A DNA stretch of 64,000 nt. Origin: Squalus acanthias (Eukaryota). The number at the start of each line of letters is the position of its first letter. Position 1 is the first letter of the stretch. This document shows, piece after piece, positions 1,705-64,000 of the stretch. Position numbers and translations under genes: made by a program. The DNA is taken from positions 56,670,001-56,734,000 of the forward strand of contig CM059432.1 in NCBI GenBank assembly GCA_030390025.1, in the 5' to 3' direction. Under the pieces are notes generated by a model. The model saw only the letters and a program-made list of their open reading frames with translations. It did no database searches and was not told where the DNA came from.

Positions 1705-4700
1705 GGGTGGGGAGGGAAATCTAGAATGCTAAAGAGAAAAGACAAGGAAGCAGTGCAGGAAAGTGATTGGGGTAAGGATAACCAGATTGTGTCAGTAAGG
1801 GACAGAGCGTACAAATAAAGGAGTGCACTAACAAATAGGGTCCGGGTAAGAAAAAATGGTAATAAGACAAATAGGGCCATCGTACAAAAAAATGTTAAGA
1901 TGTCTAAAAATGTTAAAAAGACAAATCTAAAGGCACTGTATCTGAATGCATGAAGCATTCGTAATAAGGTAGACGAATTAACAGCGCAAACAGATGTAAA
2001 TGGATACAATATAATTGCAATTACGGAGACATGGCTGCAGGGTGACCAAGGCTGGGAGCTGAATATCCAAGGATATTCAATATTTAGGAAGGACAGGTAA
2101 AAAGGAAAAGTAGGTGGAGTGGCGTTGTTAGTAAAGGATGAAATCAGAGCAATAGTGAGAAAGGATATTGGCTCAGAAAATCATGGTGTAGAATCAGTCT
2201 GGGTGGAGCTAAGAAGCACCAAGAGACAGAAAACACTGGTGGGAGTTGTCTATAGGTCTCCAAACAGTAGTAGTAATGTAGGGGATGGCATCAAACAGGA
2301 AATTAGAGATGCATGTAACAAGGGTGACTTTAATCTACATATAGACTGGCCAAACCAAATTAGCAATAATACTGTGGAGGTTGAATTCCTGGAGTGTGTA
2401 CGAGATGGTTTTTTAGACCAGTACATTGAGGAGCCAACTAGGGAACAGGCTATCCTAGATTGGGTATTGTGCAATGAGAGAAGGGGTTAATTAATAATAT
2501 TGTGCGGGGTCCTTTAGGGAAGAGTGACTATAACATGATAGAATTCTTCATTAAGATGGAAAGTGAAGAAGTCCAATTCGAAACTAGGGTCCTAAATCTG
2601 AACAAAGGTAACTACGAAGGTATGAGGAGTGAGTTGGCTATGATAGATTGGGGAGCTTAATTGAAAAGCATGACGGTGGATAGGCAATGGCTAACATTTA
2701 AGGAACGAATGCATGAATTGCAACAGTTATACATTCCTTTCTGGCGCAAAAACACAAAAGGACAAGCGGCCCAACCATGGCTAACAAAAGAAATTAAGGA
2801 GAGTATTAGATCCAAAGAGGAGTCATATAAAGTTGCCAGAAAAAGTAGCAAGCCTGAGGATTGGGAGCAGTTTACAGTGCAGCAAAAAAGGACCAAGAGA
2901 TTGATTAAGAGGGGAAAAATAGATTATGAGAGTAAACTTGCAAGGAACATAAAGTGGATTGTAAAAGCTTCTACAAGTATGTAAAAAGAAAAAGATTAGT
3001 GAAGACAAATGTAGGTCCCTTACAGTCAGAAACGGGAGAATTTATAATGGGGAACAAGGAAATGGCGGAGCAATTAAACAAATACTTTGGTTCTGTCTTC
3101 ACGGAAGAGGACACAAATAACTCCCCAGAATTGCTAGGGAACCAAGGGTCTAGTGAGAAGGAGGAATTAAAGGAAATTAGTATTAGTAAAAAAATAGTGC
3201 TGGAGAAATTAATGGGACTGAAAGCCGATAAATCCCCAGGGCCTGATAATCTGCACCCCAGAGTACTAAAAGAGATAGCCATGGAAATAGTGGATGCATT
3301 GGTTGTTATCTTCCAAAATTCTATAGATTATGGAACAGTTCCTGCAGATTGGAGGGTGGCAAATGTAACCCCACTATTTTAAAAAAGGGGGGGGAGAGAG
3401 AAAACGGAGAACTACAGACCGGTTAGCCTAACATCAGTAGCAGGGAAAATGCTAGAGTCTATCAAAAAGGATGTGATAACCGGGCACTTAGAAAATATCA
3501 ACGGGATTAGACAAAGTCAACATGGATTTATGAAAGGGAAATCGTGTTTGACAAACCTACTGGAGTTTTTTGAGGATGTAACTGGTAGAATAGATAAGGG
3601 AGAACCAGTGGATGTGGTGTATTTGGATTTTCAGAAGGCCTTTGATAAAGTCCCACATAAGAGGTTAGTGTGCAAAATTAAAACACATGGGATTGGGGGT
3701 AATATACTGGCATGGATTGAAAATTGGTTAACAGACAGGAAACAGAGAGTAGGAATAAATGGGTCTTTTTCGGGGTGGCAGGTGGTGACTAGTGGGGTAC
3801 CGCAGGGATCAGTGCTTGGGCCCCAGCTATTCACAATATATATCAATGATTTGGATGAGGGAACCAAATGTAATATTTCCAAGTTTGCTGACGACACAAA
3901 ACTAGGTGGGATTGTGAGTTGTGAGGAGGATGCAAAGAGGCTTCAAGGCGATTTAGACAAGTTGAGTGAGTGGGCAAATACATGGCAGATGCAGTATAAC
4001 GTGGATAATTGTGAAGTTATCCACTTCGGTAGGAAAAACAGAAAGGCAGAGTATTATTTAAATGGTGATAGATTGGGAAATGTTGTTGTACAAAGGGACC
4101 TAGGTGTCCTTGTACACCAGTCACTGAAAGCAAACATGCAGGTGCAGCAAGCAATTAGGAAGGCAAATGATGTTGGCGTTCATTGCAAGAGGATTTGAGT
4201 ACAAGAGCAAGGACGTCTTACTACAGTTATACAGGGCCTTGGTGAGACCACACCTGGAGCACTGTGTGCAGTTTTGGTCTCCTTACCTAAGAAAGGATAT
4301 ATTTGCCATAGAGGGAGTGCAGCGAAGATTCACCAGACTGATTCTTGGGATGGCAGGACTGTCGTATGAGGAGAGATTGGGTCGACTAGGCCTGTATTCA
4401 TTCGAGTTTAGAAGAATGAGAGGGGATCTCATTGAAACGTATAAAATTCTGACAGGGCTAGACAGACTGGATGCAGGGAGGATGTTTCCCCTGGCTGGGG
4501 GCTCTAGTACGAGGGGTCACAGTCTCAGGATACGGGGTAGGACATTTAAGACTGAGATGAGGAGAAATGTCTTCACTCAGAGGGTGGTGAACCTGTGGAA
4601 TTCTCTACCACAGAAGGCTGTGGAGGCCAAGTCACTGAAAAATTTAAGAAGGAGATAGATAGATTTCTAGACACAAAAGGCATCAAGGCGTATGAGGAGA

Positions 4701-5656: not shown

Positions 5657-6130
5657 AAAAAAAAAAATTTGTTAATTCATTCTCTGATATGGACATCGCT
5701 GGCAAATCCGACATCTGTTGCCCATCCCCAGTTTCGCTTGAGATGGTGGTGGTGAGCCGCCTTATTGAACCACTGAAGTCCATGTGGTGAAGTTACTCCC
5801 ATAGTGCTGTTAGGTAGGAAGTTCCTTCATTGTCAATGGCTCAAAAGTCTTGGCACGGTGGTATATGTCCAAGTTGGAATGGTGTGTGATTTGGAGGGGA
5901 ACTTGGAGGTGATGGTGTTCTCGAGCACCTGCTGCTCTTGTCTTTCTAGGTAGTGGAGGTTGCAGGTTTGGGAGGTGTTACCAAAGATGCCTTGGTGACT
6001 TGCTGCAGTGCATCATGTTGCTCGTACATACTGCAGCCACAGTACGCTGGTGATGGAAGGAGTGGATGTTTAAGGTGATGGTTGAGATGCCAATCAAGTG
6101 GACTGCTTTTTCCTGCCTGGTCTTGTGCTT
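5657..6130 (-). mobile_element. Degraded 3' end of the tRNA-headed LINE family
   Basis: Homologous to 45930-46380 (ggtggtggtgagccgcc, ttggaggggaacttg, ttgctgcagtgcat) with A/T-rich tail. Confidence 0.75.
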
Positions 6131-7504
6131 TAAATGTACAAAAAAATGATAAAAAGAAAACCATGAATGCTAGAAATTGGAAATGAAAATAGAAATTACT
6201 AGAAATGTACAGCAGGCTGATCAGTATCAGCAAGAGAAATATAGGTTAATGCTCCAAGTCCAAAGTAAACCTCTCTTCAGAATGTTTTTAAAATATATGC
6301 AATCATTTGCATACTAACCTGAATTGGGCTCGGGGCAAAGCCCTATGACTAATAATAATCAGAGGTCTGACAGCCAATTGCTAGGGTTGGAAAAATGAAA
6401 GGCAAACAAAAGCAATTGTTTCATGTGGAGCCCAAGAGGGTATGTGACTGGGGGCAATCCTTTACTTGGTACAGTGTTGAATGAGGGGACACCGAGAGGA
6501 GTTTCCATACAACAATAGTACACGTGATGAGTTTAAAACTTCAGCATCACAAAAGTTGAAATAAAAGCAGAAAATGCTGTACAGACCGCATGTGTAAAGG
6601 AAAAAACAAAGGTTGTCATGTTTCAGGTGTGTAACCTTCATAAGTTGATGTTGTTTTGAGTACCACAGTGAGTGAGAAAGTGAATTAAAAGGTCAATATA
6701 TATCCATATTCGGAACCTGAACAGGCTATTTTATTTCCTTGTTGCCTCAGTGACAGTCCGTTAAGTATGTACTTGCTGAATAAGAAATCGGTCAATGGAT
6801 TTTTGAATGTCCATAAAATAGAGGATGAATCAGTTATGGAATTGTGTTGGCAATAGACCTGAGAGCATGTTGCCTGGTTTCTCTCTTGAACAGGACAGGG
6901 TGTGCGATGTAATTGATGCAAGAAAACAACAGAAATATAAAAAATAAATGAACAGAGTTTTAAAAAATCTGTCCCACCATATTATTGTACGTTAACAAGA
7001 AACTTTAAAATGTACAAAAGCAAAATACTGTGGATACTGTGAATCATCTTTGAATGCTGACGATACATTTTTCATTATTTTGAGCCCGGGGTCCCAATTT
7101 TGTTCATGGTTTAAAAGCAGACATATTCTCATGAACTTCAGTGCACTGCATCTTTGCTGTAAGCAGTTAGTGATTCACCTAATTGGGAGGTTCAGTGTAC
7201 ATAACATGAAGATGTGTAGTAAAAATCTTAGTATTCTTAGTGTGCCATAATCAGAATAATTGTAAAATTGTAGATAACTAAAACTTAATCCATTTTAGAT
7301 TGAATACATTTTCAATAGATAGATTGCTGCATAATTAATGTGTGGAAATAAAACTCCTGAAGAAAGAGACCATTAACAAAATAATCAGTCAGTCTATTCA
7401 GAATCTTGGAATTGCTAACTTCACAATGAACTTAAAAGAACAATTTTATACATGCTTTTTTGGTTAAAAGACTTTTTAGCCAACCAGTGAATAGACCAGT
7501 AAAT

Positions 7505-8846
7505 AACCACTTTGTTTCCAATTTCCACCCTTCCCTCACCTTCACATGGTCCATCTCCAACTCTTCCCTTTCCTTCCTCGACTTTTCTGTCTCCATTTCT
7601 GGGGATATGCTATCGAGCAACATCCACAGTAAGCCCACTGACTCTCACAGCTACCTTGACTACACTTCCTCCCACTCCGCTTCCTGTACGGACTCTATTG
7701 CATTCTCCCAGTTTCTCTGTCTCCGTCGCATCTGTTCTGATGATGCCACCTTCCATACTCGCGCAGCCGATATGTCTTTTTCCTCAACCGAGGATTCCTC
7801 TCTACCATGGTTGACAGGACCCTCGACCGTGTCCTTTTTCATTTCCCGCACTTCTGCTCTCAACCCTTCCCCTTCCTCCCAGAACCACGATAGGGTTCCC
7901 GTTGTCCTCGCCTTCCACCCCACCAGCCTCCACATTCAACAGATCATCCGCCGCAGTTTCCGCTACCTCCAGCATGATCCTATCACCAAACACATCTTCC
8001 CCTCCCCTCCCCTTTCAGCATTCTGAAGGGACCGTTCCCTCCGTGATATCCTGGTCCACTCTTCAATCACCCCCAACACCCTTCACCTTCCCGTGTAAGC
8101 GCAGGAGATGCAACACCTCCCCTTTTACTTCCTTCCTTCTCACCGTCCAGGGACCCAAACACTCCTTCTAGGTGAAACAGCGATTTACTTGTACTACTTG
8201 CAATTTAATATACTGTATTTGCTGCTCACGATGTGGTCTCCTCTACACTGGGGAGACCAAACACAGATTGGGTGACCGCTTTGCAGAACACTTCCGTTCA
8301 GTTTGTAAGCGTGACCCCGAGCTTCCGGTCGCCTGTCACTTTAATTCTCCACTCCACTCCTACTCTGAACTCTCTGTCCTCGGCCTCCTTCGCTGTTCCA
8401 ATGAAGTTCAACGTAAGTTTGAGGAACAGCACCTCATCTTTCTGTTAGGCACTTTACAGCCTTTTGGATTCAACATTGAGTCAACAATTTCAGATCATAA
8501 TCACTGCTCCCATTTTTTCGAATGACAGCTGTTGATGTTTCTTTACTTGTCCCATTACCACCTCTTTTTGCTTCGTACAATCATACCTACTGTCATTTAA
8601 TCTCTCGTGCCTTCCACCCTATCACAGACCTTCCCTTTTGCTCTTTCCTCCCCTCCCCCTTTCCCTGCCTCTGCACTTGCTTAGAAACTGTTACATCTCT
8701 AACTTTTTCCAGTTCTGACGAAAGGAAATCGACCTGAAACGTTAACTCTGTTTCTCTCTCCACAGATGCTGCCTGACCTGTTGAGTATTTCCAGCATTTT
8801 CTGTTTTTATTTCAGATTTCCAACATCTGCAGTATTTTGCTTTTGG
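7505..8846 (+). mobile_element. Penelope-like retroelement, 5'-truncated (RT C-terminus, GIY-YIG endonuclease, 3' repeat)
   Basis: FHPSLTFT..SFLD..KPTDSHSYLDYTSSH; FTC...NLIYCICCSRCGLLYTGET..RLGDRFAEH (GIY-YIG); 3' repeat with hammerhead. Confidence 0.9.
8711..8747 (+). ncRNA. Minimal hammerhead ribozyme motif in Penelope 3' repeat
   Basis: agtt-ctgacga-aagg-aaatcga-cct-gaaa-cg-tt-aact: intact core, stem I AGUU/AACU, palindromic stem III AACGUU. Confidence 0.7.
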
Positions 8847-9663
8847 ACCTGTAAATAACCTTCCTTGTACTCAATCCTATCTTTCAGCAGTAAAGTGTGC
8901 CATGTGTACCCACTATGAATTATGCACTCAGCTTTAATTGACAAGTTTGGCCATTTTTTTCAGTAAAATAAACTAGCAAAAATGTTTTATGGTTTTTGCA
9001 ATCTTTATTTTACTCCTTGATCATAATCCAGATACTTCAATTTATTTGGTTTGCATTCTGTTAAAAGTGCATTCCAAGATTCTACAAGCACTTGTGGTAC
9101 AAGAATTGTCAAACTGGCTGTTTGTCCAGACAATATTTCTGTTTCTCTGAGACTGCAATTTCAAAAGTTACTAGAAGATGGAATAGCAAGCCATTTGCTA
9201 TGTGCTTTATCTTGCACCAAGAGCAGAATTAACTTCTGAATTTTTATCAGGGAATGTGCAGAACTTGCTAAACCACATAAAGATACAGAATGGATTTTAA
9301 ACTGAAGCTGCTGACTAAAAATTTGCTTATCAGGAAATATAAATGTCATGTTATCTGTAAGTAGTGCATTAAACTTGAATGTGGCCATTCAAATTGAATT
9401 TGTTGCAGTATTGGAAACATAGCTTTAATAGAGCCAAGCTTTTAGCTTAATTGGTAATGTAGAAGACTATAAAAAGTTTCTAACAAGTCTGTAATCATGA
9501 ATTCACATTAATTTCAACTTCTTTGTCAAATTTTTTGTCTTATAATACTCCTGTGCAGCGCCTTGGGATGTTTTACTATGTTAAAGGCGCTATATAAATA
9601 CAAGTTATTGTTGTTGTTCTGTTTCACAACATATTACAATTTCCAAGAGAATGGACTAGAGTT

Positions 9664-9941
9664 GTTGGTGAGTAAGTGTCGCTTGATAGCACTGTCGACG
9701 ACACCTTCCATCACTTTGCTGATGATTGAAAGTAGACTGATGGGGCGGTAATTGGCTGGATTGGATTTGTCCTGCTTTTTGTGGACAGGACACACCTGGG
9801 CAGTTTTCCACATTGTCGGATAGATGCCAGTGTTATAGCTGTACTGGAACAGCTTGGCTAGAGGTGCGGCTAGTTCTGGAGCACAAGTCTTCAGCACGAC
9901 AGCCGGGATGTTATCGGAGCCCATAGCCTTTGCTGTATCCA
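9664..9941 (-). mobile_element. Internal RT-region fragment of the tRNA-headed LINE family
   Basis: DTAKAMGSDNIPAVVLKTCAPELAAPLAKLFQYSYNTGIYP..NPANYRPISLLS. Confidence 0.85.
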
Positions 9942-11721: not shown

Positions 11722-11895
11722 GACAAAAGCAAAATACTACGGATGCTGGAAATCTGAAATAAAAACAGAAAATGCTGAAAATACTCAGCAGGTCAGGCAG
11801 CATCTGTGGAGAGAGAAACAGAGTTAATGTTTCAGGTCGATGACCTTTCGTCAAAGCCTGCCTTGATGATTATTTCCAGCATTTTTTGTTTTTAT
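11722..11895 (-). mobile_element. Penelope terminal-repeat fragment with short inverted remnant
   Basis: Reverse complement of 8715-8846, followed by a partial inverted copy (tatttccagcattttttgttttt). Confidence 0.75.
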
Positions 11896-15489: not shown

Positions 15490-16614
15490 ATGGGGGCTGT
15501 ACTGGCATGCCACTTCGCCCTCCAGGATCTACAGCGGAGGGAGCCTAGGCAGCTACAAAGACGGGAACATATGTGCAGAGGGAGGAGGAGGGCCATCAGG
15601 GCTCTTAACAGGAGGCCTTACCCTCCAAGGGTATTCCGAGAGCACTTCTCCTACCTTTAATTAAGTGAGGAGCAGAGTATTAGAAGGCTTCGCTTCACCA
15701 AGGAGGTGCTCACAGAACTCTGCCACCTCCTGCAACCAGACCTCCAGCCTCAGACCAGGGCAACCACGGCTCTCCCAGTGGCAGTCAAGGTCACTGTGGC
15801 CCTCAACATCTTCGCCAGCGGATTCTTCCAGTCTGCAACAGGAGACATAGTTAACATCTCACAGTTCGCCGTCCATCGCTGTGTCCGGGAGGTCACTGAG
15901 GCTCTCTACGGCAGGAGAAGGGACTACATTGGCTTCCCGATCGCCAGAGAGAAGCAGGACGAACGTGCATGTGGCTTTGCCAGGGTAGTGTGTTTCCCCA
16001 TGGTGCAGGGTGCCATTGACTGTGCCCACGTGGCTTTGCGGGCACCACATAACAATCCTAAGATCTTCTGTAACCACAAAGGCTACCACTCACTTACATG
16101 TGCAGTTGGTGTGCGACCACGCACAGCGAATCCTCACCGTCAATGCCCGCTATCCTGGCAGCAGCCACGATGCCTTCATCCTGGGCCAGATTGGTGTGCC
16201 AGCACTCTTCCAGCCACCTCGTCAAGCTCGCGGCTGGCTGGTCTGAGACGAGGGCTATCCGCTCTCCAGCTGGCTCGTGACTCCCCTCCGCAACCCCAAC
16301 ACTCCTGCCCAGCACTCATACAATGAGAGCCATGCTGCCACCAGGAACATCATCGAGCAGACTATCAGCCTGCTGAAGCAACAGTTCCACTGCCTCGACT
16401 GCTTGGGAGGAGCCCTCCAGTACTCGGCTAAGCATGTGTCCCATTTCGTGGTGGTCTGCTGCATTCTCCACAGCCCTTGCCACCAGGGATTGCGGGACCA
16501 CCTCAGGACGAGGAGAAGGAGGAGGAGGAACAGGAGCGAGGGAGGAGGCAGCTACTCAATCGGCCTTCCGGATGGGTGGTCCATGACCTCCTCATCAGAC
16601 TGCGGTTCGAATAA
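15490..16614 (+). pseudogene. Harbinger (HARBI1-like, DDE_Tnp_4) transposase, disrupted
   Basis: [79 protein letters not shown]. Stops at 15658 and 16244 plus frameshifts. Confidence 0.9.
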
Positions 16615-16761
16615 ATTAAACCCCAGATCCCCGTTGCTCACCACATCTCCATCATTCCATCCCTGTTGCAGGCCATATCACAGCGCAAGGCTGAAATGAG
16701 ACACACCACAAAAGAATCCAAACTGAATTAATAAATTTATCGAAAATCAGTGAACACATAT

Positions 16762-18649
16762 TTACAACAAAAATATTAACTGTTCACCCTTGTGCAATCC
16801 CTTAGTGCCTGTCGTTACTGTGCCTTTGCCTACTCTAGTGCTCCTACGAAGTGTTGGCCCAGTGGCTGTAGCAGGACTGGTGGAAGGCTGCTGACTGTCC
16901 ATGCGGGAGACTTCAGATGGCCTTGCAGGACGCTCTCGACCAGCTCTGGACCTGGAAGGCACGATTGTAGACTGCACCACCTCAGCATGGGCAGCAGCAG
17001 TCAGTGCTGACTGGATGACAGGCAGCAACAAGAGCAATGGCGGAGTGGCAGTGGTGGGACCAGGAATGCTGTAGTCCTGCGAGAGGACAGCAGGTTCCTG
17101 CTCCACTGACCCACTTCCACTCCCCCAGGGCAGCACCTCAGCATCCCTAGCAATCTGTTGGAGAACAGATTGTTGGCCTGCTGCGACACTGTGAAAGTCC
17201 CGATCGACAGTGGTAGATCCAGCCATGATGGCAGCAGTCAGAACTTGCATGAGAGCAGTCTGAGATTGGATGCCACCAAGCATAGATTGCATTACAGCAC
17301 TAAGACGTTGCGTCGCTTCCGTCTGTGCTGCAATGGAAGCTGCTAGATCGCCCATCACATGCGGCATCAGTTCTGGGTTGCCACGGTCTCTCTGGGACTC
17401 TACCATCCTTTGCAGACTGGAAATGATGGGCTCCATGGTGTGTGCACTGAGCCTTGTGCAATGTTGGAGGTGGACTCCTCCACGCTCCTTACAATTGCTG
17501 ACAGGCTCTCGGGCACTCTTGCCATTGCACCTATCATCTCCGTGTGCATACCCATCACCCTTCTTCTAAAGGCCTCCCCATCGAGGTCCTTATCTGAGTC
17601 CTGTGCAGCAGAACTCTCCCTCCAGGGAGCTGGGCCCCGAGCTACCCTTTCCCCCTGGCCTTGCTGCAGCCTACTCATCCCCGGTGCCTCACCCTGTGCA
17701 GATCTCGCTACTATACTAGCCTCTAAAGAACGCGTAGTGCCAGTATCTGAGCTGGTGTCTGTGGGTGATACATGCAGTGACGCGGTGTGTTCTTTCTCCT
17801 CCTCTTCTCCCGCCTCGCTCTCTACCGTGCCCTCAGGGACAGGCTGCTCAGGTGTTTACTGATTATCTGAAAGCATAAAGGCACAAGAGTCGAGTTAAGG
17901 TGAGGGGAGGGGGGCAGGAAGAGAGAAATGCATGGATACAGCATGATTAGCTGGAAAGTGCGAAATGCTTGTGGGGTGAGGGGGAAGTGGGAGGCGAGAA
18001 GGAGTCGGGATGAACATACTGTTGTTGTCCCCAAGGGGATCAACGTCGCCAGTGGCCACGGCGCCCACCACCTGGCACCCAATAATCTGCAGCACTCGAT
18101 TCTCCAATGTAGACAGTGGTTGGGTGTTGGCTTGCCCCCGCCTGTGTGCGCCTGCTCCCTCTTGTTGTGAGCCACCTTGGCCTGCAAGAGAAAGGAAAGT
18201 GTGTGAGTGAGTGTGGAGCAATGTGTTTGGGTGATGTGCCTGCCATAGTTGAATAGCTGTCATTACATGCAAGGTGTGAGATGTGGGTGAGAGTGTTGGT
18301 AGGTAGAGCTTGTTGGTGGGTGAGTGCTGGGGGTGTGGCGCTTTGAGTAGTGTGTTAAGATTGTGGTTCAGATGGTGGTATGCAGCATTTGTTGAAGCAA
18401 CCACACACCCTGACCACCTGAGTGAGGTCGTTAAATTTCTTTCTGCACTGTGTGTGGGTCCTGGGGACCACAGTGCTGCCCGAGATGTGCTGCGCTACCT
18501 CCCTCCACATGACGCGGAAGACTTGTGGCGAGGGCCTCCTGCCACTTGCCGGGTAGAACATAGCGCTCCGTCTCTCCACAGCAAAAACCAATGCCTCCAA
18601 TGCTTCATCGCAGAATCTGCAGGCTCTCCCTGAGGCATGGATCTGCCAT
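16762..18649 (-). pseudogene. Harbinger Myb/SANT-like DNA-binding protein gene, three exons, disrupted
   Basis: Exon 1 (~18649-18409) RF.DEALEALV.AVE..W.EVA..RT.TQCRKKFNDL. Exon 2 (18181-18020) AKVAHNKREQAHTGGG. Exon 3 from 17866 is acidic, then coiled-coil. GT..AG sites give compatible phases once one frameshift in exon 2 is allowed for. Confidence 0.8.
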
Positions 18650-25229: not shown

Positions 25230-26035
25230 CATGAAAGAGCACCATAGCCAACCTGGTGAAGCTACAACACAGGACTATATGCACGCTAAACAGCATGCTA
25301 TAGACAGAGTTAAATGATCCCACAACCAAAGGATCAGATCAACGCTCTGCAGTCCTGCCGCATCCAGCCATGAAGGGTGGTGGACAATTAAATAATTAAC
25401 AGGAGGAGGAGGCTGCATGGACATCCCCATCCTCAATGATGGCGGAGCCCAGCACGTGAGTGCATAAGATAAGACTGAAGCGTTCACAACCATCTTCAGC
25501 TAGAAGTGCTGAGTGGATGATCCATCTCGGCCTCCTCCTGAGGTACCCAGCATCACAGATGCCAGTCTTCAGCCAATTCAATTCACTCAAGAACTTATTG
25601 GATACAGCAAAGGCTATGGGCCCTGACAACATCCCGGCTATAGTGCTGAAGACTTGTGCTCCAGAACTAGCCGTGCCTCTAGCCAAGCTGTTCCAGTACA
25701 GCTACAACACAGGCATGCTCAGTTTGGGTTCTGCCAGGACCATTCGGCTCCAGACCTTATTACAGCCTTGGTCCAAAGATGGACAAAGAGCAGAATTCCA
25801 GAGGTGAGCAGAGTGTGACTGCCCGTGACATCAAGGCAATATTTGACAGTGTGGCACCAAGAAGCCCCAGTAAAATTGAAGTCAATGGGGATCAGGGGGA
25901 AACCTCTCCACTGGCTGGAGTCCTACCTAGCACAAAGGAAGATGGTTGTGGCTGTTAAAGGCCAATCATTGCAGCCTGAGGACATAGCCGCAGGAGTCCC
26001 TTGGCACCGTCCTAGACCCAACCATCTTCAGCTTC
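25230..26035 (+). mobile_element. Internal fragment of the tRNA-headed LINE family (with deletions)
   Basis: LDTAKAMGPDNIPAIVLKTCAPELA; KLKSMGIRGKPLHWLESYLAQRKMVV..AGVP. Confidence 0.85.
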
Positions 26036-27184
26036 TGTTTTATGGGTGTTTCTGACATGCCTGTAAATGGTGCAACATGAGTTGGCAGAGTGCAATGTAA
26101 TACAAATTATTATCAAGGTGCGAACACTGCGACTAGTATTATTATTCCTTTTGTATAGTCTTTATTGCAGCAGTATTTATGATAGTGGACAGTTGTGTCA
26201 AGAAATAGGAAAAATAATGTTTGTATGACACAGTAGGGAGTATTCAAATGTTATTGGTGCAATATTTGCTGTTAATCATAAAATGGTGCTTATTTTATTT
26301 AAACAAAAAAATATACATGCACTTTTGCTGGAAATAGATAATATGATGGTTAAAAGTGGAATATTGTATTTATTCTACCCAAAAGTAAGACTTTTGAAAC
26401 AAGCGAGTTATCAGGGTTTCATCACTTGTGAATATAACATCAAATAATTAATCACTTGAGTACAGGACAAGGGGACAAATGATTGATGCTGTTGTCTAGC
26501 TTTGTGATATTCTAAATAGTATCACCTGTCAGAAGTTCTACAGCCACCCTATAGTCCTAATTATAATTTCTAATTGCAATGCTGTTAGAAAAAACTGTAG
26601 ATATTGCAGTTTTGACCACTGTCAAATGGAAAGGTGTTAAAATTGAGATAATTTGTTAAAACTGAAAATAAGACTGTAGTATTTGAATCCAGACTGCATC
26701 TCGCACTATTTTGACTTTTATATAAATGTCAAAACAGCTAGCTTTAATAATTATTGGAATAATCTTTTAATTGGGTTGTCAACACATTGGCCATCAGTTT
26801 GAAATCATTCGTCTATGAACAGCTTTTTGAATGGGGAAGTGTATGTAGATGAGCATTAGAGATGCCTTGGAAACTAAAACGGAACAGTTTAAAATTAATT
26901 AGTACAATTTCAGCTCAACAACCTTGTTAATTACTCAGTATGCATTTAATTTACTGCACTTTGTAAAGAGGTCATGGTTCAAAATTGGTCTGCCTTGAAT
27001 AAGAAGGCAACTTGAATCAAATTAAAAAATCCTCATTTACATTTTGTATCTAAAGTGAATATAAATCATTTAAAATTATATCAGTTTAAAATAAAGTTTT
27101 GAATTAGTTTTAAAATGGCCTAAGAGATAAAAAATAGCCTCTTTAAAATATAGAATTACAAGTCTAAACACCTCAGATTTTATG

Positions 27185-35817: not shown

Positions 35818-37279
35818 TTAATCAGCACTGCCACCCCACCTCCCTTTTTTCCTTCCCTATTTTTTTCTGAACACCTTGTACCCTTGAATATTAAGTGCCC
35901 AGTCCTCACTGTTTTTAAGCCACGTTTCTGTTATTGCAACAACATCATATTGCCACACGGCTAATTGTGCTTGTAGCTCGCCAACCTTATTCACCACACT
36001 TTGTGCGTTTACGTACATGCATTCTAAACCCATTTTTGAATTTTTCATAGTCTTTCTTAGTCCGCTCCTATCTAATATTGTACTACTTCCACCTCTAGTA
36101 CTACTTTCTTCTCTAGTACTGTGCAACACACTCACTCTTTCATGCGCCTTATTCCTCTCTTCTACTCCTATATGCTGGTGCCCATCCCCCTGCCAAGCTA
36201 GTTTAATTCATCCCCAACAGCACCAGCAAACCTCCCTGCGAGAATATTGGTCCCGGCTCTGTTGAGGTGTTACCCGTCCGGCTTGTCCAGGTCCCACCTT
36301 CTCCAGAAACGGTCCCAATGCCTCAGGAATCTAAAGCCCTCCCTCCTGCACCATCTCTCCAGCCACGCATTCGTCTGTCCTATCCTCCTATTCCAGTACT
36401 CACTAGCATGTGGCACCGGGAATAATCCGGAGATTACTACCTTTGAGGTCCTGCTTTTTAATCTCTCTCCTCGCTCCCTAAACTTTGCCTGCAGAACCTC
36501 ATCCCTCTTTCTGCCTATGTCTTTGGTACCGTATGGACAACGACCTCTGTCTGTTCACCCTCCCCCGTCAGAGTGTCCTGCAGCCGCTCAGTGACATCCT
36601 TGACCCTGGCACCAGGGAGGCAACATATCATCCTGGAGTCACGTCTGCGGCCGCAGAAACGCCTGTCTGCTCCCCTAACTATCGAATCCCCTACCACTAT
36701 TGCTCTTCCACTCTTTTTCCTCCCCTCCTGTGCAGCTGAGCCACCCGTGGTACCTTGGACTTGTCTCTGGCTGCACTCCCCAGTGAACCCATCACCCGTA
36801 CCAGTACACAGAACAGAATACTGGTTGGAGAGCGAGATGCACTCTGGGGACTCCTGCACTACCTGCCTGGTCCTCCTCTTCTGTCTGGCGGTCACCCATT
36901 CCCTCTCTGCCTGCATACTCTTAAGCTGCGGGGTGACCACTTCCAGAAATGTGCTATCCACGTAACTCTCAGCCTCGTGGATGCACCGCAGTGACTCCAG
37001 CTGCTGCTCAAGCTCTGAAACGTGGATGTCGAGCTGCCGTAGCTGGTGACACTTCCTGCACATGTGGTCATCCAGGCTACGCGAAGCGTCCAGGACTTTC
37101 CACATGGCACAGGATGTGCACTCCATGGGACTGAGCTGCCCTGCCATGCCTCTATTTAATAGACTAAAAACTAACGAAGCAGAAATAAACTTAAAACTTA
37201 AAAAAAAACACTCACCAGCTACTCACCAATCAGCTCCTTCCCTTGTGCCGACATCACTTTTTCTACTCTGACGTCACTC

Positions 37280-37560
37280 CTTCGGATTGTGCCTCTGTTG
37301 AGCCGCTGCCTCTTTTGCTCGGTTTCCGCTCTGGTCTTGCCCAGGTCCGCTGCCTCCACTTTCTCTCGCGCTCTTCACAGCGCCGCTGCTCCTGCTCCTC
37401 TCGCTGCTGCTCCCGCTCCTCTCCTCTCGCTGCTCCTCTCGCGCTCTTTACAGCGCCGCTGATCCTGCTCCTCCTCTCGCCGCTCTTCTCGCGCTCTTTA
37501 TAGTGCCACTCCTCTCGTCGCTCCTCTCACGCTCTTTATAGCGCTGCTGCTCCCGCAGTA
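37280..37560 (-). repeat. GC-rich imperfect tandem repeats in CR1 5' UTR
   Basis: Recurring ctcctctcgcgctctt(t)acagcgccgctg units; CRE palindrome tgacgtca at 37269-37276. Confidence 0.65.
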
Positions 37561-37562
37561 TT

Positions 37563-38553
37563 GCTGCTACCGAGCCACTCTTGGTGATGGACATTGAAGT
37601 CCCCCAACATTCTGTGCCCTTGCTACCCTCAGTACTTTTTCCAAGTGGTGTTCAACATGAAGGATTACTGATTCATCAGCTGAGGGAGGGCGGTAGGTGG
37701 TAATCAGCAGGAGGTTTCCTTGACCATGTTTGACTTGAAGTCGTGAGACTTTATAGGGTCTGGAGTCAATGTTGAGGACTCCCAGGACCACTCCCTCCTG
37801 ACTGTATACCACTGTGACACCACCTCTGGTGGGTCTGTCCTGCCAGTGGGACAGGGCATACCCAGGGATGGTGATGGAGGAGTCTGGGACAGTGGCTGAA
37901 ATGTATGATTCTGTGAATATGACTATGTCAGGCTGTTGCTTGACTAGTCTGTGGGACAGCTCTCCCAATTTTGGCACAAATCCCCAGGAGGACTTTGCAG
38001 GGCCGACTGGGCTGGGTGTGTCTTTGTCGTGTCCGAATCCGGTGCCTAGGTTGATGCTGGGCGGCCTATTCGGTTTTATTCTTATTATTGTTTTTTGTAG
38101 TGGTTTGGTGCAACTGAGTGTCTGGCTAGGGGATTTCAGAGGGCAGTCGAGAGTGAACCACATTGCTGTTGGTCTTTAGTCACATAGGCTGGACTGGCTA
38201 AGGACGGCAGATTTCCTTCACCAAAGGACATTAGTGAACCAGTTAGGTTTTTACAACAATCTGGCACTAGCTTTTCATTTCCAGATTTATTTAATTAACT
38301 TAGTTTAAATTCCCCAGCTGCCGTGGTGAGATTTGAACTCATGGTTCATTAGTCCAGGCCTCTGGATTACTACAAAAAGAAAATACTGCAGATGCTGGAA
38401 ATCTGAAATAAAAACAGAAAATGCTGGAGACACTCAGCAGGTCAGGCAGCATCTGTGAAGAGAGAAACAGAGTTAACTTTTCAGGTCAATGACCTTTCGT
38501 CAGAACATTTGGATTACTAGTCCAGTAACATAACTATTATGCTACCCTACCAC
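37563..38553 (-). mobile_element. 5' end of a LINE: tRNA-derived Pol III head fused directly to APE endonuclease ORF
   Basis: A-box-like TAGCATAATAGTT (~38544-38532), B-box GAGTTCAAATCT (~38340-38329), then ATG at 38163 opening 198 aa with GFVPKLGEL..QPDIVIFTES, DRPTRGGVTVVY, TTYRPPS. Confidence 0.85.
38373..38509 (-). mobile_element. Penelope terminal-repeat insertion with 10-bp TSD inside the tRNA head
   Basis: TSD tggattacta (38363-38372, 38510-38519); reverse complement of 8712-8845 including the hammerhead core. Confidence 0.85.
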
Positions 38554-41754: not shown

Positions 41755-42625
41755 AGTTCCATTCACAACTCTTCAGATAATGAAGCAGTCCACACCTGCA
41801 TGCAAAAAACCTGGACGGTATTCATGCTTGGGCTGATAAGTGGCAAGTAACATTCGCGCCACACAAGTGCCAGGCAATGACTATCTCCAACAAGCGAGAT
41901 TCTAACCATTGCCCCTTGTCATTCAATGGCATTACCATTGCCGAATCCCCCACCATCAACATCCTGGGGGTCACCATTGACCAGAAACTTAACTGGACCA
42001 GCCACATAAATACTGTGGCCACAAATGTAGGTCAGAGGCTGGGTATTCTGCGGCGAGTGTCTCACCTCCTGACTCCCCAAAGCCTCTCCACCATCTACAA
42101 GGCACAAGTGAAGAATGTGTTGGAATACTCTCCACTTGCCTAGATGAGTGCCGCTCCAACAGCACTCAAGAAGCTCAACACCATCCAGAACAAAGCAGCC
42201 TACTTGATTGGCACCCCATCCACCACCTTAAACATCCACTGCCTCCCCCACGGCGCACCGTGGCTGCAGTGTGTACCATCTACAAGATGCACTGCAACAA
42301 CTCGCCAAGGCTTCTTCGACAGCACCTCCCAAACCCACGACTTCTACCACCTAGAAAGACGAGGGCAGCAGGCGCATGGGAACACCACCACCTCCAAGTT
42401 CCCCACCATCCTGACTTGGGAATATATCGCCGTTCCTTCACCGTCGCTGGGTCAAAGTCTTGGAACTCCCTACCTAACAGCACTGAGAGAGTACCTTCAC
42501 CACAAGGACTGCAGCGGTTCAAGAAGGCGGCTCACCACCACCTTCTCAATGGCAATTATTAATGGACAATTAATACTGGCCTTGCCAGCGACGCTCACGT
42601 CCTAGGAACGAAGATAAAAAAAAAA
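41755..42625 (+). mobile_element. 3' part of the tRNA-headed LINE family
   Basis: WADKWQVTFAPHKCQ, ILGVTIDQKLNWTSHI, EYSPLA, SWNSLP, FKKAAHHHLL; tail ggccttgccagcgacgc and poly-A. Confidence 0.9.
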
Positions 42626-45929: not shown

Positions 45930-47260
45930 TTATAGGATGTGGGCGTCGCTGGCAAGGCCAGCATTTATTGCCCATCCCTAATTGCCCTTGAGAAGGTGGT
46001 GGTGAGCCGCCGCCTTGAACCGCTGCAGTCCGTGTGGTGAAGGTACTGTTAGGTAGGGAGTTCCAGGATTTTGACCCAGCGACGATGAAGGATCGGCGAT
46101 ATACTTCTAAGTCAGGATGGTGTGTGACTTGGAGGGGAACTTGTAGGTGATGGTGTTCCCATGTGCCTGCTGCCCTTGTCCTTCTAGGTGGTAGAGGTCA
46201 CGGGTTTGGGCGGTGCTGCCGAAGAAACCTTGGCGAGTTGCTGCAGTGCATGTTGTAGATGGTACACACTGCAGCCACGGTACGCCGGTGGTGGAGGGAA
46301 TGACTGTCTAAGGTGGTGGATGGGGTGCCAATTAAGTGGGCTGCTTTGTCCTGGATGGCGTCGAGCTTCTTGAGTGTTGTTGGAGCTGCACTCATCCAGG
46401 CAAGTGGCGAGTATTCCATCACACTCCTTACTTGTACCTTGTAGATGGTGGAAAGGCTTTGGGGAGTCAGGAGGTGAGATACTCTCTGCAGAATACCTAG
46501 CTTCTTACCTGCTCTTATTGCCACAGTATTTATGTGGCTGGTCCAGTTAAGTTTCTGGTCAATTCTGACCCCCAGGATGTTGATGGTGGGGGATTCGGCG
46601 ATGGTAATGCTGTTGAATGTCATGGGAAGGTGGTTAGACTCTCGCTTGTTGGAGATAGTCATTGTCTGGCACTTGTGTGGCGCGAATGTTACCTGCCACT
46701 TATCAGCCCAAGTCTGAACGTCGTCCAGGTCTTGTTGCATGCGGGCATGGACTGCTTCATTATCTGAGGAGTTGTGAATGGCGCTGAATACTGTGCAATC
46801 ATCAGCGAACATCCCCATTTCTGACCTTATGTTGGAGAGAAGATCATTGATGAAGCAGCTGAAGATGGTTGGGCCTAGGACACTGCCCTGAGGAACTCCT
46901 GCAGCGATGTCCTGGGGCTGTGATGATTGACCTTCAACCACCACAACCATCTTCCTTTGTGCTAGGTATGACTCCAGCCAGTGGAGTGTTTTCCCCCTGA
47001 TTCCCATTGACTTCAGTTTTATTAGGGCTCATTGATGCCACACTTGGTCAAATGCTGTTATGAGGTCGGGAGCCGAGTGCTCTTGGCGGAACCCAAACTG
47101 GGCATCACTGAGCAGGTTTTTGGTGAGTAAGTGCCGCTTGATAGCACTGTCGATGACACCTTCCATCATTTTGCTGATGATTGAGAGTAGACTGATGGGG
47201 CGGTAATTGGCCGGGTTGGATTCGTCCTGCTTTTTTTGGACAGGACATAGCTGGGCAATG
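45930..47260 (-). mobile_element. RT and 3' end of the tRNA-headed LINE family (best-preserved copy)
   Basis: 269-aa ORF with [23 protein letters not shown]; upstream NYRPISLLS and QFGFR; full 3' tail. Confidence 0.92.
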
Positions 47261-57260: not shown

Positions 57261-58627
57261 TGGTTGAACACCATTTGGAGGAAGCACTGAGGGTAGCAAG
57301 GGGCACAGCATATACTCTGAGTGGAGGACTTTAATGTCCATCACCAAGAGTGGCTTGGTTGTACCACCATTGACCAAGCTGGCCGAGTCCTGAAGGACAT
57401 AGCTACCAGACTGGGCTTGTGGCAGGAGGTGAGAAAACCAGCACGGGATTAACTTACTTGACCTCGTCCTCACCAATCTACCTGTTGTAGATGCATCTGT
57501 CCATGACAGGTATTGGTAGGAGTGACCACCGCACAGAGCTTGTGGAGATCTATTCCCGTCTTCACACTGAAGATATCCTCCATTGTGTCATGTGGCACTA
57601 CCACCATGCTAAGTGAAATAAAGTAAGAACTGATCTCGCAGTTCAAAACTGGGCATCCATGAGGCACATGTGGGCCATCAGCAGCAACAGAATTGTATTC
57701 CGCCACAATTTGTAACCTCATGGTCCGGCATATCCCTCACTCCTCCATCACCATCAAGCCAGATGACCAACCCTGGTTCAATGAGGAGCATAGAAGAGCA
57801 TGCCAGCAGCAGCACCAAGCTTATCTTGTCAGAATTGGGGCTGTTTGCTGATGAATGCATAGTGTTAAGCTCCATTCACAATTCCTCAGACATTGAAGCA
57901 GTCTATGCCTGCATGATGAAGACCTGGACAATATCCAGGCTTGGACTGATAAGTGGCAAGTAACATTTGTGCTACACATTTGCCAGGCAATGACCATCTC
58001 TAACAAGAAAGAGTTTAACTACCTCTCCATGACATTCAATGACATTACCATCGCAAGAACCCCCCCCCGCCCCCCCCCCCCTGGCCATCAACCACGTTGG
58101 GGGGTGGGGGGAAACCATTGACCAGAAACTCAATTGGACAAGCCACATAAATTCCATAGCTACTAGAGCAGGTCAGACGCTATGAATTTTGCGGTCAGTG
58201 GCTCACTCCTAACTCCTCAAAGCCTTTCCATCACCTAAAAGGCACAAGTCAGGAGTGTGATGGAATACTCTCCACTCGCCTGGATGAGTGCAGCTCCAAC
58301 AACACTCAAGAAGCTCAACGCCATCCAGGAAAAAGCAATCTGCCTGATCGGCACTTCACCCACTATCCTAATCATCCACCCCCTTGACCACCGGGCGTAC
58401 CGAGGCTGCGCTGTGTATTATCTACAGGATGCAATGCAGCAACTCGCCAAGGCTTCTTTGACAGCACCTAACAAACCCGCGACCTCCACCACCTAGAAGG
58501 ACAAGGGCAACAGGTGCATGGGAACACCATCACCTGCAAGTTCCAGACCAAGTTAGACACCACCCTGACCAGAACATATATCGTCCTTCCTTCATTGTTG
58601 CTGAGTCAAAATCCTCAAACTCTCTAA
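57261..58627 (+). mobile_element. Degraded, internally deleted copy of the tRNA-headed LINE family
   Basis: VEHHLEEALRVAR, DFNVHH, LLDLVLTN, SDH (EN); then LFADEC, EYSPLAWMSAAPTTLKKL. Confidence 0.85.
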
Positions 58628-61665: not shown

Positions 61666-62593
61666 TATTGCTTTTTCATACTGTTGGCACACAAACACGA
61701 AGCAGAAGTTTTAAGATAAACATGGTTTTTGTGAATCATAGTTATAGATGTATTCACTTAGTTTGTTCAAGAAGAAGTTACATAACAAATAAGCTGCTGA
61801 AAACTTTTTAAAACTTAATTTTATTCAAAGGAACATTGTGAGGCATGCCCAGGTGTTGTCTTACATGAAGTCTGTTTTCTTCAAGACTGTTGCAACCATT
61901 TTTATGAGATGATGGGGATGTAACTTGGTGTCAATGCATTTAACTGATTTTATTCAAATATTCCTGTGACTGCATTTAAGGAAGCCCCAGACTTTGAAAA
62001 CTCAATAGGGGGTTTGGATTGAATGGTCATGGGACTTCCTCAATTTAAAAAAATATATTGAGAAGCCCATATATCGGAATTTTCTCCAATGTCCTGTTGT
62101 GATGTGCGATGTGGACTTGTTTTTTTGTATGCGTGTGTTGCCCAGTTCAGTTTTGTAACTTTGAAAGCTGTTTTCAGTTTATTTACACACTTCTGGTGGA
62201 GGTCCCTTTGTTACTGTGCAGTCATGAGGGAGAGCACCCACACATTCCATATTCGAATTGTCGACATCCACTGGGAAATGTGAAAAGTGACATAATCAAT
62301 AAGTAGCAAACTGATGCTGTCAGTTAGGATCGACAGAGCGTAGAATATTCAGCTCCCTGTGATGGTCTTACGAACCACATTTTGTCCATTTTTTTTTTTA
62401 AATGACTGCAGTTTGTAATAATTTTTATTTTCAGTACAAGAAAATACACCTTTTTGACAGCATTAAAGAACAATATAGGTTCAGAATTATGGTTGACAGT
62501 AAAAGCAGAGGAACATTTATTGAGTTTGTATGACATTTTCTGTCTTTAACAGAGATGTTAACCTGTTTATTCCAAATTGGTTAATTTCTGTCT

Positions 62594-63015
62594 ACGGGGT
62601 ATGATAGCATAGTGTTTAGGGTACTGGACTAGTAATCCGGAGGCCTGGACTCATGATCTGGAGACATGAGTTCAAATCCCACCATGGCCGCTGGGGAATT
62701 TAAATTCAGTTAATTAAATAAATCTGGAATAGAATCAGTAATGGTGACCATGAAACTACCAGATTGTCGTAAAAACCCATCTGGTTCACTAATGTCCTTT
62801 AGGGAAGGAAATCTGCCGTCCTTACCCGGTCTAGCCTATATGTGACCCCAGACCCACAGCAATGTGGTTGACTCTTAACTGCCCTCTGAAATGGTCGAGC
62901 AAGCCACTCAGTTGTATAAGGCGGATCACCACCACCTTCTCAAGTTCAATTAGGGATGGGCAATAAATGCTGGCCTTGCCTGCGACGCCCACATCCCATG
63001 AATGAATAAAAAAAA
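62594..63015 (+). mobile_element. Full-length tRNA-derived SINE sharing both head and tail with the tRNA-headed LINE
   Basis: A box tagcatagtgtt (62605), B box gagttcaaatccc (62668). Body matches 38553-38110 (minus). Tail matches the LINE 3' end. Poly-A and ~80-bp flanking duplication. Confidence 0.9.
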
Positions 63016-64000
63016 TGTTTATTGAGTTTGTATGACATTTCTCTGTCTTTAACAGAGATGTTAACCTGTTTATTTCAAATTAATTAATTTCTGTCTTAAA
63101 GTTGCTGTTTGTCATCTGCTATCACAAACAGTTATTTATAGCCTTGATGATCTAAGGTGTAAAATCAGAAAATGTTTGAAATGCGCAGAGATTTGGTCAG
63201 CAACTAAAAGTGAAAATGACATTAATATTTTGATCGGAACACCATTTTGATGTTGGCTTCCAATAATATTGACTCACCCTTGTCCCTCCTGAGGCTATTT
63301 AAAATAAAAGATTATTTAAAATAGTTGCATCATTGTACGTTAAACCCAGGAAATCTCCCAACTGCGTCTGACCTGTCATGAGATCTGGGATAGGGACAAA
63401 TGCAATAGTTGAGTCCATTTTGTCTTGTCAATGTAGAATGTACTGCTAGTTGGAGTTGTTGTAGGTGTGTGTTGTAGAAGGTTTCAGTTCACAAATTAAC
63501 ATCATGTTCCTGCAGTTAGATTCTCAATCTAAGGAATTGTATTGAAGTTGGATACAACTACTCTACTTTCCTATTTTAAATATCTGTAACCTTTCTAAAG
63601 GAAATTATTTTTGGCATAAAAGGCAGATTACAGTAGGCTGCAAAATGCCACAAAAATTGTCACTAAATTTTCTCAAGGGCACATGTCCTATCACCCCATA
63701 AAAATAAATCTCATGCCTTTAGCATTCACAGTCTCCTTCTGTAATCTCGAAATCCACTACTGTTCTTTTGTGTACTTAGTTTTTTTTCCCCTTGCAATAA
63801 CAGTGATGAAATGTTTGGCATATCTGCTTTCTAAGTTTATGACAAGCTCGTGACACACTTTATTTATGACTAACTTCTTATCTTCACATGCCATAGGCTT
63901 GTATTCAGGGCAGTCTTGAACTGTCAGCTTTTTGGGAGCTGTGACAGTTTTTTTTTAAAGGTGTTGATCAGTTTTTCCTTGTTTTCTGAATTAGCATTTA

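Follow-up and report, generated by a model that had tools for sequence, protein, structure and literature searches.

A tRNA-derived head on a protein-coding CR1-group LINE of a shark: a candidate RNA polymerase III-transcribed retrotransposon

As a working rule, LINEs use RNA polymerase II (Pol II) and SINEs RNA polymerase III (Pol III), with Pol III units being short and non-coding. Non-LTR elements are likewise described as transcribed by Pol II and SINEs by Pol III, with the shortness of Pol III elements tied to processivity (Kojima 2024, PMC10886601), and SINEs are held to be unable to encode a protein (Kojima 2018, PMC5786205). Among LINEs, the Zenon or CR1-Zenon elements resemble the shark element described below in having a CR1-group endonuclease-reverse transcriptase (EN-RT), a length of about 3.3-3.5 kb and high-copy 5'+3' deletion derivatives (PMC6740152, PMC4016481). 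Persaeus, the deletion partner of Zenon, keeps part of the Zenon 5' UTR; unlike the shark derivative, it is stated to have neither tRNA homology nor a Pol III promoter (PMC6740152). Lepidopteran CR1-type elements can have one ORF, so that the lack of an ORF1 is not unusual for this branch (PMC6740152). A 'CR1-Zenon like LINE' class, given without structure, has been reported from the whale shark (10.1101/443036), and the shark family is therefore probably catalogued as a repeat.

Heads derived from tRNA are known from the shark SINEs HE1, SacSINE1 and the CmiSINEs and from the MetaSINEs, as in the shark LINE, but these elements are all described as non-coding, with HER1 or L2-2_CM as partners, whereas the shark LINE is coding (PMC5499810, PMC4824008). 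The MetaSINE superfamily is marked by a 66-bp Meta domain that follows a tRNA-Thr-like head. Its heads resemble tRNA-Thr most, and in the shark head the first loop is AGT (Thr), a likeness drawn from descriptions (PMC4824008); six short motifs compared with one supplement of the MetaSINE paper gave no match (PMC4824008). No published description of a tRNA head or of Pol III transcription for the shark family was found in searches confined to the literature. Here we analyze a locus within a 64,000-nucleotide stretch of the Squalus acanthias genome (the window), in which a predicted tRNA-type promoter head, normally found only on short non-coding SINEs, stands on a protein-coding LINE. This LINE may be a rare protein-coding unit read by Pol III.

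Architecture of the element and its copies in the window

The window, at G000:C8:56670001-56734000, belongs to a 3.7-Gb genome and is dense in CR1-type LINE fragments. The locus at 37563..38553 is a decayed copy of a 3.28-kb CR1-group LINE with a single ORF (EN-RT, 968 codons). Its parts, and the other members of the family in the window, are as follows.

38510..38553, minus strand: 5' part of the tRNA-derived head, with the A box (38544-38533, degenerate here) and the first anticodon-like arm, loop AGT (Thr)
38373..38509: later Penelope-type insertion, foreign to the LINE family, with a 10-nt target duplication
38320..38372, minus strand: remainder of the head, with the duplicated anticodon-like arm and the B box (38340-38330)
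38110..38319, minus strand: leader or body, common to the short derivative, with AATAAA at 38291 and an out-of-frame ATG at 38163
37993..38109, minus strand: spacer of about 38 codons from the last in-frame stop to the endonuclease; shared variants fit the EN frame better
37563..37992, minus strand: N-terminal part of the APE endonuclease, in which this copy has its own 11-nt deletion near 37985; it ends at about 37560 against other sequence
57263..58625, plus strand: LINE-family fragment, consensus 791-1353 joined to 2392-3147 by an internal deletion, linking EN to RT
25247..26036, plus strand: LINE-family fragment, consensus 1365-1863 and 2037-2363
9661..9941, minus strand: LINE-family fragment, consensus 1746-2026
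45935..47257, minus strand: LINE-family fragment from RT to the 3' end, consensus 1885-2098 and 2160-3278
41755..42625, plus strand: 5'-truncated copy, consensus 2432 to the 3' end
5657..6130, minus strand: old 5'-truncated copy, 78% identical to the consensus
62596..63015, plus strand: 400-nt SINE-like internal-deletion derivative, in which head and leader run as far as about consensus 329 and are followed at once by the final 80 nt with poly(A)

Most of this layout had been proposed in a sequence-only reading of the window, and its main elements hold. The minus strand does run from A box to B box to leader, with 167 nt from the B box to the ATG at 38163, and the intervening Penelope-type sequence is indeed an insert: it is 92% identical to 8712-8845 and to 11724-11853, and a 10-nt duplication flanks it at 38510-38519 and 38363-38372. 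The six other fragments that had been grouped with the locus all align to one family consensus, at 78-96% identity. The overlap claimed between the copy at 57261 and the EN end is found between 37656-37569 and 57263-57359 (81% identity), in a copy with an internal deletion. The reported lack of an ORF1 is likewise confirmed, the longest frame upstream of EN being one of 76 codons from an ATG, with no Pfam match. The element at 62596-63015 belongs to the same family and was absent from the earlier list.

Other repeats were seen alongside. Segment 8712-8845 stands after a GIY-YIG-like frame at 8172-8525 (domain assigned by eye), within a Penelope-type element at 7436-8845 that has RT and GIY-YIG-like frames and whose 3' end is the source of the 38373 insert and of copies at 11724, 23844 and 61566. 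A CR1 5' end with an esterase-type ORF1 and a purine-rich repeat (36515-37560) abuts the cut end of the EN copy. GC-rich sequence at 15661-17862 contains frames resembling a PIF/Harbinger transposase on the plus strand, with a Myb-like partner region nearby (both by eye).

The head, the short derivatives and the family across the genome

A genome search was carried out with the EN region only (37590-38110); 40 of 7095 candidates were scored and 30 loci returned, one of them the query locus. Every one of the 29 non-self copies so selected continues upstream into the same leader. The start of the head is reached within 25 nt by 13 of the 29 and within 5 nt by nine, with unrelated flanks beyond, and copy starts pile up at tRNA position +1, counted from the A box. 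None of the 29 has an alternative 5' end, and the 16 shorter ones end at scattered points with no common upstream sequence. The expectation that 5'-complete copies begin with the tRNA head is thus borne out, and the worry that the fusion might be unique to this locus is removed by the same junction in 29/29 EN-selected loci on many contigs. The fusion of head and ORF is a property of the family and not a local accident. As a head-EN fusion it is seen in this genome only; among the pieces listed from contigs of other species none bridges leader and EN, and pieces from two organisms end inside the spacer.

In the consensus head the A box and the B box are both canonical; between them stands an anticodon-like arm (loop AGT), repeated once in tandem. 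The Rfam tRNA model matches the head of sister copies at 16.9 and 18.1 bits, below its gathering score of 29 because one arm of the head is duplicated. ARAGORN found no tRNA in the window; run at relaxed score on metagenome loci it gave scattered chance matches only, which were discarded. One full-length copy (L061, which represents L041 at greater length) measures 3.26 kb between head and poly(A); its B box is gone and it carries late stops. On G000:C22, at 27.61-27.68 Mb, seven near-identical head-plus-leader fragments (L008, L012-L014, L017, L018, L021) share the same upstream flank and lie about 4-7 kb apart, a tandem array carrying the Pol III head.

The short element at 62596 is flanked by a 78-nt direct repeat (62516-62593 and 63018-63096), which, if it is a target-site duplication, is of unusual length. 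When 12 copies were searched automatically for target duplications, nothing convincing came out, and this 78-nt repeat, later found by alignment, was missed. In eleven short elements the head and leader are retained as far as consensus 324-393, and the point of junction with the tail varies; the variety of joints, and the spacer retained in some, indicate that the long element underwent such deletions repeatedly. Contigs of four runs, drawn from four organisms (presumed RNA, with starts and strand not visible) cover all 30 element bins, include head-tail joints of the same kind, and rise in depth toward the 3' end. Set against the usual definition of a tRNA-derived SINE, the LINE has the head with A and B boxes at its 5' end, but at 3.28 kb it is neither short nor non-coding, which only the 400-nt derivative is. 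The 5' end has the construction of a SINE, but the element functions in the manner of a LINE and does not belong to the SINEs.

A similar picture would arise if a SINE with the same head had happened to insert immediately upstream of a truncated LINE, at this locus or at a few loci, and a SINE-like element with that head is present in the window. The junction is, however, identical in all 29 EN-selected loci across many contigs, on which ground a local SINE-LINE chimera was ruled out, and the short elements, with their varied joints and occasional LINE spacer, point to descent from the long element. Chance insertion is hardly credible as an explanation.

In a tree of 107 RT domains, built with no labelled references, the consensus groups with P0001-P0003, P0005, L062, L063 and L066 (support 0.97), far from the CR1s of the window; P0001-P0003 are single-ORF proteins at about 41% identity. 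The moth protein P0012, which we take to be a Zenon protein, has the shark LINE consensus as its best match in the homologue set (33%), and the ESM Atlas returned generic RT clusters only. The family has a poly(A) tail and frequent 5' truncation. Its copies have a median identity of 93.5% to the consensus (50 long matches). No intact copy was seen: stops fall within the matched 726 residues in 59 of the 62 best-scoring copies, and just after them in the reference copy. The family may be dormant in this genome. Gene models of Heptranchias, Mobula and Pristiophorus contain pieces of it, with protein identities of 67-84%. Five proteins from several sharks and a ray (P0004, P0037, P0051, P0064, P0066) are LINE-family fragments in host gene models, either exonised or mis-predicted.

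Loss of T tracts from the sense strand

Vertebrate Pol III terminates at four or more Ts. The earlier count by eye, which gave no sense-strand TTTT in the five better-preserved copies and no TTT in 41761-42610, is reproduced. The two decayed copies, at 57261 and 5657, have one internal T4 each, as reported, and the latter has a second run at its edge; the neighbouring CR1s are T4-rich as claimed, ten CR1 stretches carrying 1-6 each. These counts had suggested a purge of terminators, a depletion that is strong once interrupted T tracts are counted and not significant for TTTT alone under codon-aware nulls. The consensus sense strand has no T4 against 4.0 expected by composition (P 0.012) and 7 T3 against 20.3, but the absence of T4 has P 0.16-0.18 under synonymous-codon permutation and P 0.07 under a third-base redraw.

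We define T-dense sites as five-base windows with at least four Ts, a statistic picked after the results for T4 alone were known; it covers T4 with its neighbour as well as T3VT, TVT3, T2VT2, T3VT2 and T2VT3. The consensus has 1 such window against 20.7 expected, and the same count for the other bases is close to expectation (A, 76 vs 76; C, 94 vs 92; G, 45 vs 39). Within the ORF there is a single T-dense window, where synonymous permutation leads one to expect 10.2 (0/2000 permutations), a redraw of third bases 12.8 (P 0.0005) and a shuffle of codon order 10.0 (P 0.002). T-dense windows are missing evenly along the element. Sub-optimal terminators of human Pol III comprise T3VT2, T2VT3, T3VT, TVT3 and T2VT2 (PMC3141230), and the purged set matches them. 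The sole surviving T-dense window is a T2CT2 at consensus position 2975, a sequence at which human Pol III terminates with 15% efficiency (PMC3141230).

Codon choice follows the same pattern. At synonymous T/C sites, with CpG contexts dropped, T is used in 77/256, 25/115 and 2/37 cases when the resulting run has length 1, 2 and 3 or more, a fall from 0.30 to 0.22 to 0.05 (Fisher P 7e-4), and the A/G mirror is flat. In 21 CR1 frames from the window, used as a control, T use is 0.55, 0.57 and 0.49. Further controls came from 80 metagenome loci, of which 48 offered a clean frame of at least 600 residues; in these EN-RT frames, distant at about 25-47% identity, the synonymous T-use ratio is 0.61-1.51 (0.18 in the shark LINE) and the observed/expected ratio of T-dense windows 0.61-1.62 (0.05-0.06 in the shark LINE). 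Eight CR1 stretches of the window have T-dense windows near or above expectation. Phe content is 2.1%, compared with 3.0-3.9% in five homologues. Splice-donor and AATAAA motifs are not depleted in the consensus. Both T and TT are scarce in the element as a whole (T 0.20, TT odds 0.70).

Genomic copies contain 20 T4 runs in 97 kb (0.21 per kb, vs 3.1 per kb in CR1), scattered so that one or two copies share each site, as expected of decay after insertion. The nearest relatives with upstream DNA, L062 and L063, have ordinary T4 counts, and no B-box pattern was found within 828-900 nt upstream of their ORF. The T-tract purge is strand-specific, T-specific and absent from controls; from this specificity, and from its survival under codon-aware nulls when non-canonical terminators are included, we infer support for transcription of the whole element by Pol III.

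Coding frame, proposed mechanism and relation to known systems

The consensus was built from 108 aligned pieces, among them one full-length locus (L061); 27-53 copies cover its first 2.2 kb, and its remaining 3' third rests on 8-19. Its 3.28 kb contain one stop-to-stop frame of 968 codons with APE endonuclease and RT, and Pfam matches Exo_endo_phos_2 and RVT_1 on L061. Variants shared by at least four copies comprise 41 synonymous and 30 other changes, against 448 and 1003 among all variants, which indicates source elements under purifying selection.

The point on which the sequence-only reading must be corrected is the start codon. The ATG at 38163, taken there to open the endonuclease ORF, begins in the family a frame of 76 codons whose phase differs from that of EN; it is joined to EN in 4/37 copies, through deletions of 11, 11, 17 and 26 nt, this locus being an 11-nt case, and it was ruled out as the family start. 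The first Met of the family EN-RT frame is residue 287, with no AUG earlier. Translation of the ORF is therefore a more open matter than that reading supposed. Within the 38-codon spacer, shared variants number 9 synonymous and 10 not in the EN frame, against 3 and 15, plus 1 stop, in the ATG frame; these small numbers suggest that translation enters the EN frame soon after the last in-frame stop.

Eight ATGs precede the EN-RT frame, two AATAAA lie in the leader, and an in-phase AUG-GCC-stop mini-frame stands just upstream of the last-stop region. At consensus 304-342 (window 38130-38095, degenerate here) this in-phase AUG-GCC-UAG and a second stop are each followed by CAA, as in leaky-stop contexts; some copies have CAG or TAC in place of the stops. 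Rfam gave no IRES or ribozyme match, HDV-like ones included, in the 5' region of two copies, and seven 5' windows showed no unusually stable fold (z from -1.7 to +2.0), leaving cap-independent entry without structural support. A candidate near-cognate ACG is present in about half of the copies, as expected for a CpG site, and no canonical -1 slippery heptamer was found by eye. The distant EN-RT homologues P0006-P0009 and P0011 have what we assume to be a 2A-like motif before the endonuclease, which the shark LINE family does not have.

Four things are observed directly, namely the architecture, the 5' boundary at the tRNA start, the single EN-RT frame and the strand-specific loss of T tracts. 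Building on them, we propose that in sharks and rays a tRNA-derived SINE head became attached, probably through a template switch, to an autonomous LINE of the CR1 group, which Pol III would thereafter have transcribed over its whole length from the internal A and B boxes. TFIIIC and TFIIIB would bind there, and initiation would fall at the first bases of the element; the purge of canonical and interrupted T tracts would permit read-through of 3.3 kb, and, as with Alu, the polymerase would stop at whichever T run comes first in the flanking DNA. With less assurance, the same uncapped RNA may serve as mRNA, through cap-free, non-AUG entry within the 38-codon spacer before the endonuclease; candidates are the near-cognate ACG, which lies four codons beyond the last stop, reinitiation once the AUG-GCC-stop mini-frame has been read, and a -1 shift by ribosomes that leave the 76-codon upstream frame. 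The protein would then copy its own RNA by target-primed reverse transcription, which is established for LINEs, and internal deletions that keep head, leader and tail would yield ready-made SINEs. We assign a probability of roughly 0.55 to this reading, an autonomous LINE transcribed by Pol III whose single uncapped RNA is both translated and copied. Full-length transcription by Pol III, taken by itself, is judged from the sequence to be quite probable. The fuller picture of a natural 3.3-kb protein-coding Pol III unit, with an uncapped RNA that is both mRNA and template, a coding sequence of 2.9 kb that was recoded, even in its phenylalanine content, so as to lose Pol III terminators, and SINEs arising by deletion, would have about even odds. 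The limit of about 1.3 kb or less that Pol III processivity is said to set on such elements (Kojima 2024, PMC10886601) counts against a 3.3-kb Pol III reading.

Pol III might instead make only the RNA that is reverse transcribed, the protein coming from capped Pol II transcripts, either read through from host promoters or due to Pol II activity of the same head, and acting in trans. Such an arrangement accounts for the 5' boundary and the T-tract purge equally well and dispenses with an IRES, of which none was found; the abundant short derivatives show that the protein works in trans. A frame with no AUG, behind eight upstream ATGs and two leader AATAAA, is nevertheless a poor fit to a scanned, capped mRNA, and a 968-codon frame would be harder to keep under selection without cis preference, so that we regard this arrangement as unlikely, if worth keeping in view.

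Alternatively, the element could be an ordinary Pol II LINE, its head a Pol II promoter or a passenger and its T tracts avoided for other reasons, such as splicing signals, U-rich decay or immune sensing, or codon bias. SINE-derived Pol II promoters are known, and the low T and TT content of the whole element fits this account. So does the view that non-LTR elements are transcribed by Pol II (PMC10886601). Against it, the depletion persists when amino acids and codon usage are held constant in the nulls; it is T-specific and not pyrimidine-specific, C tracts being normal; splice donors are undepleted; and neighbouring CR1s in the same nucleus have no such loss. Exclusive use of Pol II is for these reasons distinctly improbable.

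Were the preferred reading, transcription by Pol III with translation of the same RNA, to hold, a high-copy LINE family would break the Pol II/Pol III rule and provide a natural test of how far Pol III can read and of how uncapped vertebrate RNA is translated. It would also exemplify the movement of SINE heads and bodies between SINEs and LINEs, here from LINE to SINE by simple deletion. The sequence predicts that a single change in the B box, or a single T5 introduced synonymously, would be enough to silence the element. The mechanism, if shown, would be a real exception.

Parts of the proposal have counterparts elsewhere. R2 is a non-LTR element proposed to be translated from uncapped RNA. 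L1Tc of Trypanosoma cruzi is another for which such translation has been proposed, as here, but it has an internal Pol II promoter and an HDV-like ribozyme, and the shark LINE has no ribozyme match (PMC3185411). The TRIMp3 elements Cassandra, Helenus and Ajax are, like the shark LINE, retroelements other than SINEs with a Pol III promoter derived from a small RNA; unlike it, they are non-autonomous LTR elements of 311-1263 bp with no coding capacity (PMC10886601). The available text of a Repbase survey of SINEs and LINEs describes LINE 5' parts inside SINEs and no tRNA-headed LINE (Kojima 2018, PMC5786205). Among its SINEs, Bov-tA, CoeSINE4 and SINE2-1_ACar combine a tRNA head with a LINE 5' part and a LINE 3' part, as does the derivative at 62596; in those systems only the non-coding SINE bears the head, its LINE partner (RTE, Vingi) being headless, whereas in the shark the protein-coding parent itself is headed (PMC5786205).
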